Assembly (NCBI GenBank): GCA_964618725.1
Contig: CAZUBK010000001.1
Location: 2,079-66,078 of the forward strand
From: an uncultured Pseudomonadales bacterium
GTDB lineage: Bacteria; Patescibacteriota; Microgenomatia; UBA1400; Chazhemtobacteraceae
Direction: 5' to 3'
DNA: 64,000 nt
Shown: piece by piece, positions 56,487-61,828 of the stretch
Numbering within the stretch: the stretch's first letter is position 1
How the letters are laid out: each line of letters opens with the position of its first letter
The notes under the pieces: generated by a model
Seen by the model: only the letters and a program-made list of their open reading frames with translations
The model's database searches: none
What the model was told of the DNA's origin: nothing
Made by a program: the position numbers and the translations under genes

Positions 56487-56547
56487 TAAATAAATGAAAT
56501 GAAGCGCTGAGTAATCGGCGCTTTTTTGGGAACATATGCTCCACTAG

Positions 56548-56595
56548 GGAGCTGGTGACCGTAATTGGCTCGAACCTAAGAGATTTGGTAACTCC
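56548..56595. repeat. Copy 1 of a 48-nt direct repeat (GGAGCTGGTGACCGTAATTGGCTCGAACCTAAGAGATTTGGTAACTCC)
   Basis: 36 of 48 nt identical to copy 2 at 57192-57239 with no gaps. Both copies begin GGAG and end CTCC. The two copies flank the ybaK-like gene. Confidence 0.5.
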
Positions 56596-56654
56596 AGATT
56601 TGACTCTTCAGTTAAATGCTTTGAAAGCACATATTAATATCAAAAGTTTCCGAT

Positions 56655-57152
56655 TTACTGATTAAAGTTGGCAACTTCTTCAACTTTATTTTCGAGCGAA
56701 TCAAATATTTTCTTTAAATCAGATCCTTTAGCTTGCACTGTTCTAGTTGGAACAACCGGACTGAACAACATCCATTCTTGTTCATAAATCTTTGGATCAA
56801 TATAGATGTCATATTGGACATTGAACCCGAATGGATATGCACAACCTGGTTTGGCACCAAAGTATTCATTTAATTCTTCAGGTGTAGAGAGTCTCACTTT
56901 ATTTACGTCTAACTTTTCTTTAATTGCATCAAAATTTACCTTTTTACCCTGAAGGGTAATATAAACAATAAACCTGTCTCCAGCTTTTAGAACCATACAT
57001 TTCATCTCTGTTCCAAAAAAACCGGTTTCTTTTTGTACAGCTTCAAGTTCTTCCCATGTTAAAGCTTCTCTGTGAGAAAATAATTTATATTCAACTTGAT
57101 TGCTATCAAGGAGACTGATTAATTTTTCGTAGATAATATTTGGATCAATCAT
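56655..57152 (-). CDS. YbaK/ProX-like aminoacyl-tRNA trans-editing deacylase
   Basis: 165 aa. The K-x-M-V-L-K and GCAYPFG motifs resemble the YbaK/EbsC deacylase core. Confidence 0.5.
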   Translation of the reverse strand: MIDPNIIYEKLISLLDSNQVEYKLFSHREALTWEELEAVQKETGFFGTEMKCMVLKAGDRFIVYITLQGKKVNFDAIKEKLDVNKVRLSTPEELNEYFGAKPGCAYPFGFNVQYDIYIDPKIYEQEWMLFSPVVPTRTVQAKGSDLKKIFDSLENKVEEVANFNQ

Positions 57153-57191
57153 GTGTTATTTCTTGTCAGTTTATGTAACTGTCTGTCATTT

Positions 57192-57239
57192 TGGAGCTGG
57201 TAACGATAATGTGCTCGAACCTATACGACCTTTTAACTC
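57192..57239. repeat. Copy 2 of the 48-nt direct repeat (GGAGCTGGTAACGATAATGTGCTCGAACCTATACGACCTTTTAACTCC)
   Basis: See copy 1. This copy lies in the 5' leader of the ybaK-like gene. Confidence 0.5.
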
Positions 57240-57340
57240 CGAAACTGATTTTACAACTCAAGGAACTCAAACGCCATATGGGTATCCTTGATTTCACAAA
57301 ACCATATATCAAAAAACCACCTAAAAGGTAATATACGTTA

Positions 57341-58273
57341 TTAATACTGATTGTCGAAATTATCTATCTCAGCTTTAATTAATTTAGCTACAGCCCCAGG
57401 ATCTTTATAAATCACCGTATGTCCACCCGGCAAGGTCGTAAGTGTTGATTCCTGTAATCTCTCTTGCATTTTCTTTGCTTGATCTAGTGTAACTTTCTTA
57501 TCTGATTCTCCCCAAATTAAAATTGTCGGTATGGAAATAGATTCCAACTTTTTAAATTGATCTTCGGTATGGGTGAGAATAAATGTTTGCCCCATGATGG
57601 CTCGTTCAGAATAGGGTATTTTACTTATCTGATCATCGGGTACTGAGAGCATCAGCGAAATAAACGTGTTTTTAATATTACTTGGGATTACTCTTGCCTG
57701 TAGTGAAAAAGTAAAAATATTTCCTAGCGTTCGAACAAGTCTAGGGTAGAGGAAGTCTTTATCAGTTGTGTTTGAGTCTACCAAGACCAAATATTTTATT
57801 GAGTCTGGAAAAAGTGAGGCGTACGAAGCCGCTATTCCTCCGCCAAAAGATTGTCCAACAATAATTGGACTTTCTATTTCCAGCTTTTCAACAACTTTCG
57901 CAAAATGCCGAGCATAATCATCATTTGACCAAGGAGCTTTTGGGGTTGAAGATCGATCAAGCCCTGGAACTTCCATCGTGTATACTCGAAAACCTTGCTC
58001 GTGGAGTGCTGTTGTCACTGCATCATTATTCGTATAAGACCCACCCCAGCCATGTATAAAGATAATGGGCTGTTGTTCTGCCTGACCAAGAGTTCTGTAA
58101 TGAATCGTTATACCGTCAATTTCAGCAGTGTGATCCTCAATTTGAGTATTGACCGGAAGTTGTTTTGTAGGAGCGATAAACTCATAGAGTCCGGCGTAAA
58201 AGAAAACAAATATGAAAAGTGAAAGAAAAATAACTCCAAATACAATCAGGAAAATTATGATTTTCTTTTTCAT
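57341..58273 (-). CDS. Alpha/beta hydrolase with an N-terminal membrane anchor
   Basis: The nucleophile elbow GQSFGGG and the oxyanion HGWGGS motif. I used the ATG at 58273 (MKKKIIIFLIVFG...); the table ORF extends to 58375. Confidence 0.5.
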   Translation of the reverse strand: MKKKIIIFLIVFGVIFLSLFIFVFFYAGLYEFIAPTKQLPVNTQIEDHTAEIDGITIHYRTLGQAEQQPIIFIHGWGGSYTNNDAVTTALHEQGFRVYTMEVPGLDRSSTPKAPWSNDDYARHFAKVVEKLEIESPIIVGQSFGGGIAASYASLFPDSIKYLVLVDSNTTDKDFLYPRLVRTLGNIFTFSLQARVIPSNIKNTFISLMLSVPDDQISKIPYSERAIMGQTFILTHTEDQFKKLESISIPTILIWGESDKKVTLDQAKKMQERLQESTLTTLPGGHTVIYKDPGAVAKLIKAEIDNFDNQY

Positions 58274-58416
58274 CAATCTAAGTATATCAACAGCGTGATA
58301 AAATGACCTTACCGAATGATCTCTGTGGTGAAGGTACCTTACTTTTAGGGAACTGATGGCACACAAGTGATCCATCTTAGCTGCAGGGATCGCCCTTCAG
58401 GGTAGAAAATACAACT

Positions 58417-59031
58417 ATGGATTGGAACTTAGACAAAACTAACAAGATCAATGCTTTAGTTTTAACAGCTCATCCTGACGATGAAACTATATTTTGTGGT
58501 GGAACAATTTTGACAAATCCAAATTGGAGTTGGAGTTTTATTTGCGTGACCATGCAGATGGGAACTCCTAGACCCCAAGAATTTACGCACGCTATCGAGA
58601 TGTACAAAGGTTATGGAGTAAATGTAGTTTCTAGCATTACCTTAGAACAAAAGGATGAGGGGCAAGAACTTAGTGAACAAGAATTAAACACTTGGAAATC
58701 TCTAATTCAAGAAAAAGCTGGAGTCCCAGATATTGTCTTTACTCATAACCAGGAGGGTGAATACGGCCATTCTCACCATAGATCGATAAATAGGTTAGCT
58801 AACGAATTATTTGAAAATGTTTGGGAGTTTATTTGTCCCGGCGCTGTGAACGTGGCACCTCAGCCGTTTAAGGCACAAAATAATATTGTCCCGCTCAGTC
58901 AAGATATTCTCAATAAAAAAACTGAAATTTTTAACCGCAGTTACACAACTCAGCTTGCTTGCTGGAAAGTGCTTCCAGAAATAATGCAGTACGAATTTAG
59001 AACGGGTCCGGAAATTTTTACTTCGAAATAA
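58417..59031 (+). CDS. PIG-L/LmbE-family N-acetylglucosaminyl deacetylase
   Basis: ALVLTAHPDDETIFCGGTIL is the PIG-L signature (AHPDDE). Confidence 0.6.
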   Translation: MDWNLDKTNKINALVLTAHPDDETIFCGGTILTNPNWSWSFICVTMQMGTPRPQEFTHAIEMYKGYGVNVVSSITLEQKDEGQELSEQELNTWKSLIQEKAGVPDIVFTHNQEGEYGHSHHRSINRLANELFENVWEFICPGAVNVAPQPFKAQNNIVPLSQDILNKKTEIFNRSYTTQLACWKVLPEIMQYEFRTGPEIFTSK

Positions 59032-59046
59032 AGAGGTCTCAATATT

Positions 59047-59697
59047 CTAATTTATTCCCGCTGATTTGGCGATAATGTTAGCAAGTAGGTTGATGCCTAG
59101 GTCTTTGCCTAACCCTAATGCGAATACACACCATTTTTGAATCTTCTCCCAACTGACATTACCTTTTTCTAGTTCTAGCTGGATATCTTTAACTTGTTTT
59201 ACTAACTTTTCTTTATTTTTTCTGTCAGATTGTTCTATATTTTGTATTATCACTTGAAAGTTGCTGGTTTTATATTCAACTTCCACCTCGTTTTTAACTT
59301 CATTGATATTGGTTATCTGAAACTTAGGCGAGTTATCAATGGAGGGCGGCGGAGTTTCTTCTAGAACGAGGTCATTCTCATAACCACTTTTAACTGCTTC
59401 AAGAATGCCGACACCATGTCTCAAGTAAGTTTCAGTGCTTGATGGCTTGCAGTTTTCCTCGAACTCTTTGACATATGTGCTGTATGACCCAAGAATTTTT
59501 TTCAAAAAGGCGAGAGACTTCATTCTCCATGAAGGATAGCCATTATGATTGACATCAGTGTAGTATTGAACAGTTGGTTCGTGTTCTTCATATACATCAA
59601 ACGACCAGTTTTGAGTTTCGTAAGATTTTGTCACGATTAGGCTATTACCCTCTTGAATCAAAGAGCTTAGATGGTTGATTGTTTCTTCTTTTGTCAT
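59047..59697 (-). CDS. Hypothetical protein, the downstream partner of the Mrr-like nuclease gene
   Basis: 216 aa. It lies 5 nt downstream of the nuclease gene on the same strand, so it is probably co-transcribed. No recognisable motifs. Confidence 0.3.
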   Translation of the reverse strand: MTKEETINHLSSLIQEGNSLIVTKSYETQNWSFDVYEEHEPTVQYYTDVNHNGYPSWRMKSLAFLKKILGSYSTYVKEFEENCKPSSTETYLRHGVGILEAVKSGYENDLVLEETPPPSIDNSPKFQITNINEVKNEVEVEYKTSNFQVIIQNIEQSDRKNKEKLVKQVKDIQLELEKGNVSWEKIQKWCVFALGLGKDLGINLLANIIAKSAGIN

Positions 59698-59701
59698 TTT
59701 T

Positions 59702-60859
59702 TTAGTAAATACTATCCCTTAATTCTCTATAAGCTTCAAAGCCAGTTTCTTGTGTAGGCTTTAAGTAAGTGTTGACGACAAACTTCTCCTCAAAGCTGCC
59801 CATTCTTATCATCTGGAGGATTTTTCGCTCGGCCAGTTCTTTGATAGCGTAGTCAAGCTCGTCATTGCTGAATTTCCATGTACCCCTCTGCAAAGTCTCA
59901 GAGATCTGTATTTCAAGTTTTCTCGTTTCCTTCTGATAAGTGTAAGTAACCAAGACTGTAGTATTAAGTCCCGTGCGTGGCAAGGTTTCAACCTCATCGA
60001 TTGTGAATTTAATCAATGGCTGCGCGGGAATATAATCGCCTGGATCTGGATGTATTCGGTAAAATGCCTGGCTTGGAACAAGCTGGATCTTAAACATCCT
60101 CTCAGAGAAAAACCAATTACCTTTGCCATTTCTAAATTCAAAGTGTAGTCGCAACTCCCTGATCTGATTCTTTCCCATAAAATCGTGCTTCATGGCAATC
60201 CTGAGATCCTTTTTCTCCTGTGGAGCTAAGGTAAAGTTCTTTGGTCCGCCAGGATACCCTCCCCAAGCAAAGCCTTTTATTTCCCAACTACACTCAACCG
60301 CCGGCACATCGCCGGTATTGATTGTCACGAAGGTTGTGTCATGGGTGCCAGTGGCAATCAATCCATCCACATCAATTTGAGGCAAGTGTTCTTCTTCCTC
60401 TGAAATGTTGAAAAACTTTTTGAGAGCATCGGGATCATTCCAAATCTTTTTATCAAGGACTACCGGACCCCAGAAATCCGGTATTGGTAAATCAATGCTC
60501 TGGGCATAGGCCTTGGCCCTATCTTTCGCGTCCGGTGACGCGGGAGAGGAAATCACAAAATAAATTCTTCTGGGGAGCTTAATCTCTCCAGCTTTAACAT
60601 AGCCGGTAATTTTATCTAACTCTGTTTTGAGAACACTGTAGGTAATCTCTTTGTACCTTTTACATTGAAAGTAATCTAGCTCGTCCTCAAAGGTGATGCC
60701 AATAACATCCCTACCTTTGTCGCCGGAGCCTTCGTAGTAGTCAACAGTCCTATATTCACCCGTGCCATCAGCCATCCAGTGACCAAGTTGAGCGAATTTA
60801 TCAGACGGGAGTAAGTTGAAATCAAGATTGTGGTGTGTCGCCGTTAAACGCCCTGTCAT
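59702..60859 (-). CDS. Mrr-like restriction endonuclease-fold (PD-(D/E)xK) domain protein with a large uncharacterised C-terminal domain
   Basis: The N-terminal region GSGDKGRDVIGITFEDELDYFQCKRYK matches the Mrr_cat pattern (D-x-G-x-D ... Q-C-K). The C-terminal roughly 250 aa have no recognisable motifs. Confidence 0.45.
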   Translation of the reverse strand: MTGRLTATHHNLDFNLLPSDKFAQLGHWMADGTGEYRTVDYYEGSGDKGRDVIGITFEDELDYFQCKRYKEITYSVLKTELDKITGYVKAGEIKLPRRIYFVISSPASPDAKDRAKAYAQSIDLPIPDFWGPVVLDKKIWNDPDALKKFFNISEEEEHLPQIDVDGLIATGTHDTTFVTINTGDVPAVECSWEIKGFAWGGYPGGPKNFTLAPQEKKDLRIAMKHDFMGKNQIRELRLHFEFRNGKGNWFFSERMFKIQLVPSQAFYRIHPDPGDYIPAQPLIKFTIDEVETLPRTGLNTTVLVTYTYQKETRKLEIQISETLQRGTWKFSNDELDYAIKELAERKILQMIRMGSFEEKFVVNTYLKPTQETGFEAYRELRDSIY

Positions 60860-61036
60860 AATGATTTGATTTTAGCAGACAGGTGCGTTGATTGCTATAA
60901 TAACTACGGGTTCGAACCTCGTTACCGGTATTTTTCACTTCCAGGCTAACGTCTAAAAACAAAAAAACCTGGCTCGAACCAGGCTAAATTGCGATTTTAA
61001 GGCTAAAAAACCAAAAAACGAGAAGTAATTCCCGTA

Positions 61037-61110
61037 TGGAGCGGGATACGGGAATCGAACCCGTGTAAGCTGATTGGCAACCAGCTACTCTACCATTGAG
61101 CTAATCCCGC
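61037..61110 (-). tRNA. tRNA-Gly (anticodon GCC), CCA encoded
   Basis: Hand-folded from the reverse complement GCGGGATTAGCTCAATGGTAGAGTAGCTGGTTGCCAATCAGC ... TTCGATTCCCGTATCCCGCTCCA. A full cloverleaf is present with anticodon loop TTGCCAA. Confidence 0.85.
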
Positions 61111-61175
61111 TTGCGCGGATCCAAGGAGCCGCTTGAGTTATTTTTGTATTCGTATTTTAAAAATTGCTTGATTTA

Positions 61176-61251
61176 TGGTGCCAAGCTGAGGATTCGAACC
61201 TCAATCTGATGATTTTCAGTCATCCGCCGTGACCATCTTGGCTAGCTTGGC
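61176..61251 (-). tRNA. tRNA-Phe (anticodon GAA), CCA encoded
   Basis: Reverse complement GCCAAGCTAGCC ... GGATGACTGAAAATCATC ... GAGGTTCGAATCCTCAGCTTGGCACCA. Anticodon loop CTGAAAA, T-arm TGAGG-TTCGAAT-CCTCA. Confidence 0.85.
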
Positions 61252-61670
61252 ATGTTTTTGTGAGTGCGAATTCTATGACAATTAGCACAAACTATATCAC
61301 ATTTGTCTATTTCTTTTTTGATTTTTTCTATTGAAAAATTCCAATGAACCATGGCTGCAACATCATTTATTTTGTCCTTTGGATCTCGATGATCTAGATC
61401 CATCACATAAGGTGGATATTTCTTGCCACAGTCCATACAGGGTTTATCTTTGTACTTAATCAAGAACTGTCGTTTGATGGCTACTCCTTTTCTTGTTCGC
61501 ATCATGGTCAATTTTTTCAAATGATCGATATTTTGGCGGTAATAGGTTTTACCCCTTTCTTTCATGCATTGTTTGCATTTCTCGTAGGTTGTGCCAGCTT
61601 TGGGGCCAGTTTTTCGTTTGTAAAACTGTGATAGTTCTTTTGGAGTGTTACATTTCGGGCAGTATTTCAT
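61242..61670 (-). CDS. HNH endonuclease (Zn-finger HNH, homing-endonuclease-like). Its 3' end overlaps the first 10 nt of tRNA-Phe.
   Basis: CPKCN ... CMDCG ... DLDHRDP ... CANCHRIRTH are HNH hallmarks. I used the ATG at 61670 (MKYCPKC...); the table ORF starts at a TTG at 61706. Confidence 0.6.
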   Translation of the reverse strand: MKYCPKCNTPKELSQFYKRKTGPKAGTTYEKCKQCMKERGKTYYRQNIDHLKKLTMMRTRKGVAIKRQFLIKYKDKPCMDCGKKYPPYVMDLDHRDPKDKINDVAAMVHWNFSIEKIKKEIDKCDIVCANCHRIRTHKNMPS

Positions 61671-61828
61671 AGTAATTAGTATGAAAAAAACCCGAAGTAA
61701 AGTCAAATTTAAGGCGAATCTTTAAAGGTGCAAACGAAACTCAGTCAGAGTATATTTTACCACGACTGACAGAGAGAGTAGTATATGGCTTAAAGTACAT
61801 TAACAAACTGGTAAAGAGAAGGTTAATA

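Follow-up and report, generated by a model that had tools for sequence, protein, structure and literature searches.

The N-terminal effector of the Lamassu protein LmuA is interchangeable, and LmuB is encoded by all Lamassu systems (Millman et al. 2022, bioRxiv 10.1101/2022.05.11.491447); in Lamassu-Mrr the effector of LmuA is a Mrr-type nuclease. In Cap4 and Avs4 a nuclease effector is fused to a sensing module, while E. coli Mrr consists of the Mrr_N winged-helix domain followed by the Mrr_cat nuclease domain. tRNA-linked defence islands hold variable defence-type cargo beside a tRNA gene, with syntenic differences between relatives. Here we describe a gene, named A, that has features in common with each of these systems, together with its surroundings in a 64,000-nucleotide stretch of DNA (the window, Table 1). 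A probably encodes a stand-alone immune nuclease, one of a rare and hitherto undescribed family of ultra-small (CPR) bacteria, and is found as swappable cargo beside a tRNA-Gly gene.

Table 1. Features of the locus, with positions in the window
Feature	Position	Strand	Remarks
Gene A	59702..60859	−	385 aa; Mrr-type nuclease N-terminal plus conserved C-terminal module
A residues 1-150, PD-(D/E)xK (Mrr_cat) nuclease domain	60410..60859	−	D51 and Q65-x-K67 predicted catalytic
A residues 155-385, putative sensor/regulatory module	59705..60397	−	Ig-like (PapD/ASH-type) beta-sandwich plus beta-sheet/helix unit
Gene B	59047..59697	−	216-aa orphan protein
Leader, 177 nt, from tRNA-Gly to first cargo gene	60860..61036	−	nhmmer conservation
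T-arm-like motif, block of the leader	60906..60922	+	Inverted copy of tRNA-Gly T arm and 3' acceptor
Extended -10-like TGCTAAAAT	60869..60877	−	Inferred promoter of A; block invariant
Divergent promoter-like site TTAGCA-18-TGcTATAAT	60872..60901	+	Conserved; just before the T-arm-like motif
Pair of terminator-like hairpins with T runs behind tRNA-Gly	61018-61035, 60966-60985 (60966..61035)	−	
tRNA-Gly(gcc)	61037..61110	−	ARAGORN and Rfam
tRNA-Phe(gaa)	61176..61251	−	ARAGORN and Rfam
HNH endonuclease gene, phage-type, free-standing	61242..61706	−	phrog_2255 match
PIG-L/LmbE-type deacetylase	58417..59031	+	Convergent with B; extra slot cargo
el2, conserved ~90-nt non-coding element	58284..58400	+	Closes the variable slot; candidate structured RNA
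Small conserved reverse-strand ORF or remnant	57191..57331	+ (as listed)	Closes a second variable slot
Alpha/beta hydrolase	57341-58273		Content of the second variable slot in the window

The features pointed out by a previous sequence-only reading of this DNA, i.e. ORFs of 385 and 216 amino acids, a tRNA pair, an HNH gene overlapping one of the tRNA genes, and a T-arm-like motif, are all present. The gap between A and B is 4 nt rather than the 5 nt given there, both genes are located on the same strand with no terminator between them, and the start codon of A lies 177 nt from the 3' end of tRNA-Gly. The locus does not stand out clearly in composition, the G+C fraction being 0.436 for gene A and 0.431 for the window.

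Residues 36-123 of A match the Pfam family Mrr_cat (PF04471) with 25.3 bits, above the cut-off of 21. D51 and Q65-C66-K67 are invariant across 24 sequences of the A family, and the AlphaFold model of the protein (pLDDT 85.6) shows the canonical alpha-beta-beta-beta-alpha-beta order, with D51 at the start of beta2 and the QCK motif within beta3. The Mrr-type PD-(D/E)xK core that had been proposed for the N-terminus is therefore well supported, and profile, catalytic core and modelled fold together place the predicted nuclease domain in the Mrr_cat/PD-(D/E)xK superfamily. The 23 homologues of A are all about 385 amino acids long and share 45-90% identity. The dN/dS values are 0.05-0.10 for A and for B alike, which indicates purifying selection and points to both being functional genes.

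The remaining ~230 amino acids of A are modelled as an Ig-like beta-sandwich followed by an alpha/beta unit. As anticipated, this C-terminal domain could not be assigned to a known family: no credible or above-threshold match was found in Pfam, PADLOC or the PDB, the Ig-like Pfam matches (TMEM131L and CFAP65) were sub-threshold only, and a PDB sequence-profile search with A gave no match. It is also very rare, a profile of the module having 56 representatives among 1.84 billion (1.84e9). Among 30 relatives that carry the module, the N-terminal regions include a Cap4-type CBASS effector nuclease (seven proteins), TIR (three), PDC-S66 (three), AbiEii (two), and HNH_2, NTP_transf_8 and Mrr (one each). 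Effector swapping is typical of immune proteins and, by analogy, argues for a defence role of A. We refer to the module as a putative sensor purely from this architecture, since it has no recognisable ligand- or DNA-binding signature.

The relationship of A to the described systems is confined to parts of the protein. The PADLOC LmuA model PDLC03852 matches residues 27-117 of A (E=2e-13) over model positions 29-124, i.e. the N-terminal ~95 of 336 positions, and the C-terminal module of A is unrelated to LmuA. Although the A family resembles LmuA in its interchangeable N-terminal effectors, similarity to LmuA does not extend over the full length, and neither LmuB (SMC) nor LmuC lies beside A at any of 14 loci (no SMC/AAA neighbour in the window or at the 13 others). 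In Foldseek comparisons, the nuclease part of A aligned locally with Cap4 (6vm5, 182 columns, probability 0.96) and Avs4 (8dgf_B, 163 columns, 18% identity, probability 0.98), while the TM-scores of the whole proteins were 0.2-0.25. Seven relatives of A bear the Cap4-type nuclease in place of Mrr, and these proteins share the logic of joining a nuclease effector to a sensing module, putative in the case of A. On the other hand, A is devoid of a SAVED/CARF domain, a cyclase partner and a STAND NTPase, and has no PADLOC or Pfam match to SAVED or cyclase.

Alternatively, A could be read as a Mrr-like enzyme, i.e. a classical type IV (modification-dependent) restriction endonuclease that recognises DNA by its C-terminal module. 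It shares with E. coli Mrr the Mrr_cat domain with the D...QxK variant motif of that family, and it consists of one gene, the vicinity of which holds no methyltransferase. We consider this reading unlikely. The Mrr_N winged-helix is absent and the domain order is reversed, the nuclease being N-terminal and the Ig-like plus alpha/beta module C-terminal; Foldseek revealed no structural likeness to known DNA-modification readers. Furthermore, other proteins combine the module with a TIR or an AbiEii nucleotidyltransferase domain, neither of which cleaves DNA, so that sensing of a trigger fits better than reading of a cleavage site.

The leader that separates tRNA-Gly from the first cargo gene is conserved at six loci, namely the window, L025, L020/21, L022, L001 and L017 (nhmmer, E=1e-38 to 1e-52). 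The cargo between leader and el2 differs in five related genomes: it consists of A-B followed by the PIG-L gene in the window and L025, the only two with this deacetylase in the slot, of A alone in L001, of B alone in L017, and of A-Zn ribbon-DUF4145-B in L022. At one edge homology stops within tRNA-Gly, at the other about 20 nt past el2. A and B are thus not core genes but variable cargo, the gene content differing between the same flanks at a syntenic, tRNA-Gly-linked site (L001, L020, L017, L022, L025 and the window), as the comparison of relatives suggested for this segment has now revealed. The flanking epimerase was used to seek an empty site, but its nearest relative is only 51% identical, so that no close genome was available for such a comparison. 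The slot differs from tRNA-linked defence islands in that it holds 1-4 genes and no integrase, and in its borders, which are the non-coding leader and el2 and not core protein genes.

The extended -10-like TGCTAAAAT ends 9 nt before the ATG of A, where no Shine-Dalgarno sequence is found, and the same block precedes B in L017. We infer that TGCTAAAAT is the promoter of a nearly leaderless A mRNA; the leader would then supply a promoter to whichever cargo gene stands first. Neither the leader nor el2 belongs to an Rfam family, RNAalifold detected no covariation on the sense strand of the leader, and a single el2 sequence folds no better than shuffled versions (z = -0.45). A small ORF in el2 was considered and dropped because substitutions are mostly non-synonymous and stop positions differ. 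On the strand opposite A and B, el2 is a candidate structured RNA.

The sequence-only reading regarded the segment as an integrated element and the T-arm-like motif as the remnant left by an integrase. Such an islet (59.0-61.0 kb), mobilised by an integrase into the 3' end of tRNA-Gly with the motif as att scar, would agree with the left homology boundary against the tRNA-Gly(ccc) loci, which lies inside the tRNA: the 28 nt at the 3' end of tRNA-Gly(gcc) are identical to those of the tRNA-Gly(ccc) of L020, despite the different anticodon and upstream genes. It would also agree with the drop in G+C to 0.35-0.39 over about 56.5-59.5 kb, and with L017, the only locus where 29 nt of the 3' end of tRNA-Gly are truly repeated in direct orientation. 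From the tRNA-end duplications of L017 it is evident that insertion of a site-specific or homing type takes place at the tRNA-Gly site as well. Nevertheless, for the locus in the window an integrase-driven origin appears doubtful. No integrase or recombinase is present within ~13 kb of the islet on one side or within about 6 kb on the other (~2.3 kb between the HNH gene and the end of the window and, outside the window, a further ~3.8 kb of gene calls), nor at the orthologous loci, and the direct repeat of the tRNA 3' end that was expected to flank the segment is missing from the window. Of the hallmarks of integrative elements at tRNA genes, only the syntenic presence/absence polymorphism is found here. 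The sequence GTTCGANNCC occurs six times in the window (1.3 expected), three times in the T arms of its three tRNA genes and once as the T-arm-like motif. This motif, however, resembles the T arm of tRNA-Gly in inverted, not direct, orientation, and is a conserved block inherited with the leader at six loci; its same-strand match to tRNA-Gly is marginal in the window (37 of 1000 shuffles) and not significant at three other loci. A cargo that varies between fixed non-coding flanks fits homologous exchange instead, and the swap would most likely rely on homologous recombination, for which the conserved flanks and the common 3' end of tRNA-Gly would serve, with no resident integrase.

In the protein encoded by gene B, a disordered linker connects a folded domain at the N-terminus to a helical one at the C-terminus, the last part of which is an invariant amphipathic tail; the maximum Kyte-Doolittle hydropathy of the protein is 1.45 over 19 residues. 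It has no match in Pfam, NCBIfam, PHROGs, PADLOC or PDB sequence profiles, and Foldseek searches of the PDB and BFVD returned nothing below E=0.04. A and B were previously taken for a two-gene module, which could be an obligate two-component restriction- or abortive-infection-like system with B as sensor, regulator or antitoxin of the nuclease. The 4-nt same-strand gap lacking a terminator, the repetition of the A-B-PIG-L order in L025, the single operon that holds both genes in L022 and the purifying selection on both are in keeping with such a pair, but the distribution of the two genes makes it improbable. B is absent at 11 of the 14 informative A loci, including L020, where the gene behind an A 90% identical to that of the window is an unrelated 143-aa ORF, and L001, where A is 80% identical. 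Conversely, six of the nine contexts of B have no A: B is found behind PDC-S18 (L019, L026 and L027), as the first gene behind the leader (L017) and in housekeeping surroundings (L003 and L029). The three genomes with A and B are close relatives that have both genes at one and the same hotspot and hence count as one evolutionary event, so that co-occurrence across independent lineages is not seen; in L022 two genes separate A from B, and the dS values between the window and L022 are discordant (0.71 for A and 1.84 for B). Possible analogues of B, namely the 143-aa ORF of L020 and the DUF4145 protein of L022, were rejected after hhalign showed no relation to it. To judge from these occurrences, B is probably a facultative, separate neighbour and not an obligate partner of A, i.e. 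a second cargo gene that would move independently and be co-transcribed behind A here. The two products may interact functionally in this lineage, since three related genomes have their genes side by side or within the same operon.

The HNH gene, which had been included in the islet, is absent from the orthologous loci L001, L017 and L020. Its probable ATG start is at 61670, giving a 142-aa protein, and the last 10 nt of its 3' end are inside the 5' acceptor stem of tRNA-Phe. The protein matches phrog_2255 'HNH endonuclease' with E=9e-36 and has homologues in 213 phage records, while the Pfam HNH match (15 bits) is below the cut-off. Motif and membership in a phage HNH family identify it, at the level of sequence, as a predicted free-standing (homing-type) endonuclease of phage type, which would be unrelated to A and simply parked at tRNA-Phe.

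The distribution of A is very patchy, with three occurrences in 185,579 species genomes, and all of its homologues belong to uncultivated CPR or metagenomic bacteria. Neither A nor B occurs in IMG/VR viral contigs or in 50,697 phage records. The genomic position of A varies between genomes and no neighbour is conserved across the 14 loci, but in other genomes A is found near defence or toxin-antitoxin genes, such as AbiEii (L009), TIR (L015) and a Gp49/HTH toxin-antitoxin pair (L008), as well as T5orf172 (L001) and DUF4145 (L022), and a distant relative lies at the repressor end of a prophage-like region. This defence-island context lends circumstantial support to the defence role suspected from the outset. 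A non-defence role, as a housekeeping or repair nuclease or a selfish addiction toxin, could account for the strong purifying selection and for the absence of a full-length match to any known defence family, but is very improbable in view of the patchy distribution, varying positions, defence-type neighbours and effector swapping of A.

The explanation towards which we lean is that A is a stand-alone effector-sensor defence protein carried as exchangeable cargo of the slot, with B as independent cargo and the HNH gene unrelated to both. The Mrr-type PD-(D/E)xK nuclease would be the effector against phage or mobile DNA, and the C-terminal module would keep it inactive until an infection-derived trigger appears, whereupon A would cut DNA in the manner of direct restriction or of abortive infection. 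A broader proposal, which is more tentative, is that the module defines an undescribed family of single-protein immune sensors, largely from CPR/Patescibacteria, with Mrr, Cap4-like, TIR, AbiEii and HNH effectors, that is shuffled in Gottesmanbacteria-like genomes through an integrase-free slot behind tRNA-Gly, and that leader and el2 encode antisense small RNAs regulating or stabilising the cargo.

CPR bacteria have tiny genomes, are attached to other cells and possess few recognised immune genes, and their defence is poorly known. If the interpretation of A is correct, this single-gene nuclease family would be a testable addition to the short list of CPR defences, and its C-terminal module would be a new sensor domain to compare with those of the effector-swapping LmuA, Cap4 and Avs proteins. 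The ~90-nt el2 may be a new small RNA, and the hotspot would represent a compact case of exchange of defence cargo between fixed non-coding flanks without an integrase.

The object of interest in this region is gene A alone, not a two-gene module. All of the parts from which such a module had been proposed, that is A, the downstream gene B, the tRNA-Gly/tRNA-Phe pair and the HNH gene overlapping tRNA-Phe, are present (see table). The A stop codon lies 4 nt from B, 177 nt separate tRNA-Gly from the A start, and the HNH stop codon falls 10 nt within the tRNA-Phe 5' end. Both A and B are under strong purifying selection (dN/dS 0.05-0.10). The GC fraction is 0.35-0.39 over window positions 56500-59500 and about 0.43-0.45 in the flanks; the dip spans the YbaK-like, hydrolase, PIG-L and B genes, and A lies outside it at 0.436.

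Coordinates of the features discussed in the window and in related loci
Feature	Locus	Coordinates	Strand	Size and basis
A	window	59702-60859	-	385 aa; six-frame ORF list and sequence
B	window	59047-59697	-	216 aa; six-frame ORF list and sequence
HNH ORF	window	61242-61706	-	six-frame ORF list and sequence
tRNA-Gly(gcc)	window	61037-61110	-	ARAGORN, Rfam
tRNA-Phe(gaa)	window	61176-61251	-	ARAGORN, Rfam
T-arm-like motif	window	60906-60922		
Promoter-like sequence	window	60872-60901	+	
9-bp helix	window	60885-60990	+	
Alpha/beta-hydrolase ORF	window	57341-58375	-	344 aa
el2	window	58284-58400		
el2	L025	2614-2725		
el2	L022	3563-3670		
el2	L017	6587-6700		
el2	L001	9152-9265		
Mini-ORF or remnant (ELIVQLxEFK)	window	57191-57331	+	
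Mini-ORF or remnant (ELIVQLxEFK)	L025	2726-2902		
Mini-ORF or remnant (ELIVQLxEFK)	L022	3673-3885		
Mini-ORF or remnant (ELIVQLxEFK)	L017	7267-7422		
Mini-ORF or remnant (ELIVQLxEFK)	L001	10046-10270		
tRNA-Gly(ccc) with copies of its ends	L017	5215-5733		
ORF including A homologue	L012	283-2283		666 aa
Region of A relative P0071	L028	1-9700		340 aa (P0071)
PDC-S18/B pair	L019	5523-7140		
PDC-S18/B pair	L026	4339-5998		
PDC-S18/B pair	L027	1-1102		

Residues 1-150 of A are a nuclease. Pfam Mrr_cat matched residues 36-123 with 25.3 bits (cut-off 21), D51 and Q65-C66-K67 show no variation among 24 homologues, and in the AlphaFold model (mean pLDDT 85.6) the core is canonical, alpha-beta-beta-beta-alpha-beta, D51 opening beta2 and QCK lying in beta3; the N-terminus therefore models as PD-(D/E)xK, and its Mrr-type assignment was upheld. 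The match between A and the PADLOC LmuA (Lamassu-Mrr) model was confined to the N-terminal ~95 positions (E=2e-13), and Foldseek matched A locally to two defence proteins, Avs4 and Cap4 (in their nuclease parts, as we take it). An Ig-like beta-sandwich is predicted at residues ~160-270, and residues 276-385 are modeled as a beta-sheet with helices. Pfam gave weak matches to the Ig domains of TMEM131L and CFAP65, and the Foldseek matches also included FlaG, pilins and the Kir cytoplasmic domain. No entry in Pfam, NCBIfam, PADLOC or PDB covered the C-terminal 230 amino acids.

A profile of A residues 155-385 searched against 1.84 billion representatives matched only 56 proteins, and repeats of a 'choice-of-anchor D' protein were also caught by it. 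In many of the 56 the module is C-terminal and follows an N-terminal region of 100-340 aa. When these regions were scanned in 30 of the proteins, matches were found to Cap4-type CBASS effector nuclease or SAVED-HNH models (seven proteins), TIR_2 and PDC-S66 (three each), AbiEii nucleotidyltransferase (two), and HNH_2, NTP_transf_8 and Mrr_cat (one each). The Cap4-type/SAVED-HNH match of protein P0066 occupies residues 81-199 and the shared module begins at 233, while in P0062 the AbiEii match covers residues 4-226 and the module begins at 234. One conserved module combined with interchangeable toxic effectors is a pattern of immune proteins. The N-terminal effector of LmuA, for example, is variable, including Cap4, Mrr, PDDEXK, SIR2 and others (Millman et al. 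2022, bioRxiv 10.1101/2022.05.11.491447). From this shared architecture we infer that the C-terminal module of A would be its sensing or regulatory part.

The full-length A family is tiny, with 23 clusters in a set of 5.8 billion proteins and lengths of about 385 aa throughout, and it was found in 3 of 185,579 species genomes, two of these matches being labelled 'uncultured Gammaproteobacteria'. Candidatus Gottesmanbacteria is the only phylum-level group named for any family member; P0076, a distant relative that has only the C-terminal module in common with A, is named Levybacteria. In other loci the neighbours of A are an AbiEii toxin (L009), a TIR protein (L015), a Gp49/HTH toxin-antitoxin pair (L008), a T5orf172 protein (L001), a DUF4145 protein (L022) and an upstream HTH_17 and DUF5677 region reading into A (L012). 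The last is a single ORF, a gene fusion or else two genes read through as one, in which the HTH_17 and DUF5677 region (298 aa) precedes an A homologue from about residue 20; just past this ORF, on the other strand, are a tRNA-Gly(tcc) and an incomplete leader-like sequence. The distant relative P0071 has the same C-terminal module with an unannotated N-terminal region and adjoins an S24 repressor, a serine recombinase and a ParB-methyltransferase, in what looks like a prophage-like region; prophages often carry defence genes at this kind of position. No homologues of A or B were found in viral contig collections or phage genomes.

The two-gene module did not survive comparison with other loci. 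Among the 14 A loci with sufficient downstream sequence B is present in only three, the window, L025 and L022, which are close relatives and represent one hotspot. In L022 two genes intervene between A and B, for a zinc-ribbon protein (85 aa) and a DUF4145 protein (412 aa); in L020 an A 90% identical is followed by an unrelated 143-aa ORF, and in Gottesmanbacteria GWA2_43_14 (L001) an A 80% identical is followed by el2, a conserved non-coding element, and then T5orf172. B, with only 11 homologue clusters, also occurs without A: among ordinary genes in L003 and L029, directly after the leader (the conserved 177 nt behind tRNA-Gly) in L017, and, as a recurrent second pairing, after PDC-S18 (317 aa; a candidate defence protein in PADLOC, E=8e-88) in L019, L026 and L027. 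The dS values between the window and L022 are discordant (A 0.71, B 1.84). B is not, as a rule, a partner of A; its behaviour is that of a small cargo gene that moves independently and is often found last in defence operons, at their 3' end. The predicted structure of B is confident for an N-terminal domain (1-110), which a disordered linker joins to a helical C-terminal domain, and the fold search gave no match. The B tail FALGLGKDLGINLLANIIAKS is invariant and amphipathic, and the maximum Kyte-Doolittle hydropathy over 19 residues is 1.45, under the usual transmembrane threshold. The B homologues after PDC-S18 are 65-68% identical and lie 4-46 nt downstream; the L019 pair is within a defence island including PDC-S06, DUF2130 and a type ISP restriction-modification enzyme.

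A is located in a small integrase-free cassette slot behind tRNA-Gly. The leader is conserved in the window, L025, L020/21, L022, L001 and L017 (nhmmer E=1e-38 to 1e-52), and el2 closes the slot in the window, L025, L022, L017 and L001. The cargo between them is A-B-PIG-L in the window and L025, A in L001, B in L017, and A-Zn ribbon-DUF4145-B in L022. Since an upstream LysM-tRNA-Gly(ccc) is common to L001, L017 and L020, and the longer contigs L001 and L017 also have in common a further upstream block, M48-LemA-PolX-like gene (595 and 582 aa, respectively)-tRNA-Asp, the presence or absence of cargo is polymorphic between related genomes at a syntenic site. In the window the leader-cargo-el2 unit is attached to the tRNA-Gly(gcc) that adjoins tRNA-Phe; homology starts within this tRNA, which shares its 3' 28 nt without a mismatch with the L020 tRNA-Gly(ccc), and stops about 20 nt past el2. 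A second small slot, between el2 and a conserved reverse-strand mini-ORF, holds the hydrolase gene in the window, nothing in L025 and L022, a dCMP deaminase gene in L017 and T5orf172 in L001.

An integrated element beside the tRNA pair had been proposed. The search for an integrase came up empty on both sides of the islet, over about 13 kb on one and, on the other, over the ~2.3 kb that separate the HNH gene from the window end plus a further ~3.8 kb of gene calls; it also came up empty in the orthologous loci. The segment in the window also lacks a bounding direct repeat of the tRNA end. We conclude that the islet is a miniature variable hotspot; the simplest route for swapping its cargo would be homologous recombination via the conserved flanks. 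This tRNA is also a target of insertions: on either side of the L017 tRNA-Gly(ccc) are copies of its ends, 25 nt of the 5' end and 29 nt of the 3' end, and between the copies lie the decayed tail of a GIY-YIG-like gene and an insert of 120 nt. These duplications are scars of repeated insertions. The T-arm-like motif, taken previously for an integrase scar, is a conserved block of the leader (ACGxGxxTCGAACC). It was compared with the tRNA-Gly T arm/acceptor on both strands, counting the shuffles that scored as well. On the same strand the likeness was marginal in the window (37/1000) and not significant in three other loci; on the opposite strand the counts per 2000 shuffles were 1 in L022, 2 in L017 (16/18 identical), 18 in L020 and 35 in the window. 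On these figures the motif is an old, inverted tRNA-Gly-like segment passed on with the leader, not the direct-repeat scar of an integrase. The HNH gene is likewise no part of the islet, being missing from the orthologous islets. It is a member of a phage free-standing HNH endonuclease family (phrog_2255, E=9e-36; homologues at 37-42% identity in 213 phage records) and an independent selfish element against tRNA-Phe; a match in Myxococcus phage Mx1 under a tRNA-Lys annotation hints that the family is habitually in or adjoining tRNA genes.

At its 3' end the leader has an invariant TGCTAAAAT, an extended -10 element, which ends 9 nt before the A ATG and is 8 nt before the B ATG in L017; there is no Shine-Dalgarno sequence. 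We infer that TGCTAAAAT is a putative promoter of a nearly leaderless mRNA; a separate promoter is necessary because two terminator-like hairpins follow tRNA-Gly. The leader may also encode an antisense RNA. On the strand opposite A, directly before the T-arm-like motif, there is a conserved promoter-like TTAGCA-18 nt-TGcTATAAT, and a 9-bp helix (GGTTCGAxCC with GGxTCGAACC) keeps its pairing through G-C to G-U changes in three of six sequences at two positions.

The el2 element (~90 nt) has 83-91% nucleotide identity across five genomes, the dS of neighbouring genes being 0.4-1.8. Read on the window + strand, its 33 base pairs are 95.8% standard, with 27 G-U cells; on the - strand the figure is only 82.4%. 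This difference suggests that el2 is a small RNA with a three-way junction, antisense to A and B. Compensatory double changes were absent, Rfam gave no match, and viral contigs contained no copy. In the hydrolase ORF, codons 1-34 are el2 rather than coding sequence, and the true start is probably M35 at 58273, opening a hydrophobic MKKKIIIFLIVFGV segment.

The sequence-only reading was thus sound in what it observed and partly so in its interpretation: the Mrr nuclease and the variable locus stand, and the two-gene module and the integrase scar do not. Tested for membership, A falls outside Lamassu, CBASS, Avs and classical Mrr. In its mode of action it would resemble the nuclease effectors of the LmuA, Cap4 or Avs type, joined to a sensor. 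A belongs to a rare, undescribed family that swaps effectors, and is a candidate single-gene defence system of CPR bacteria.
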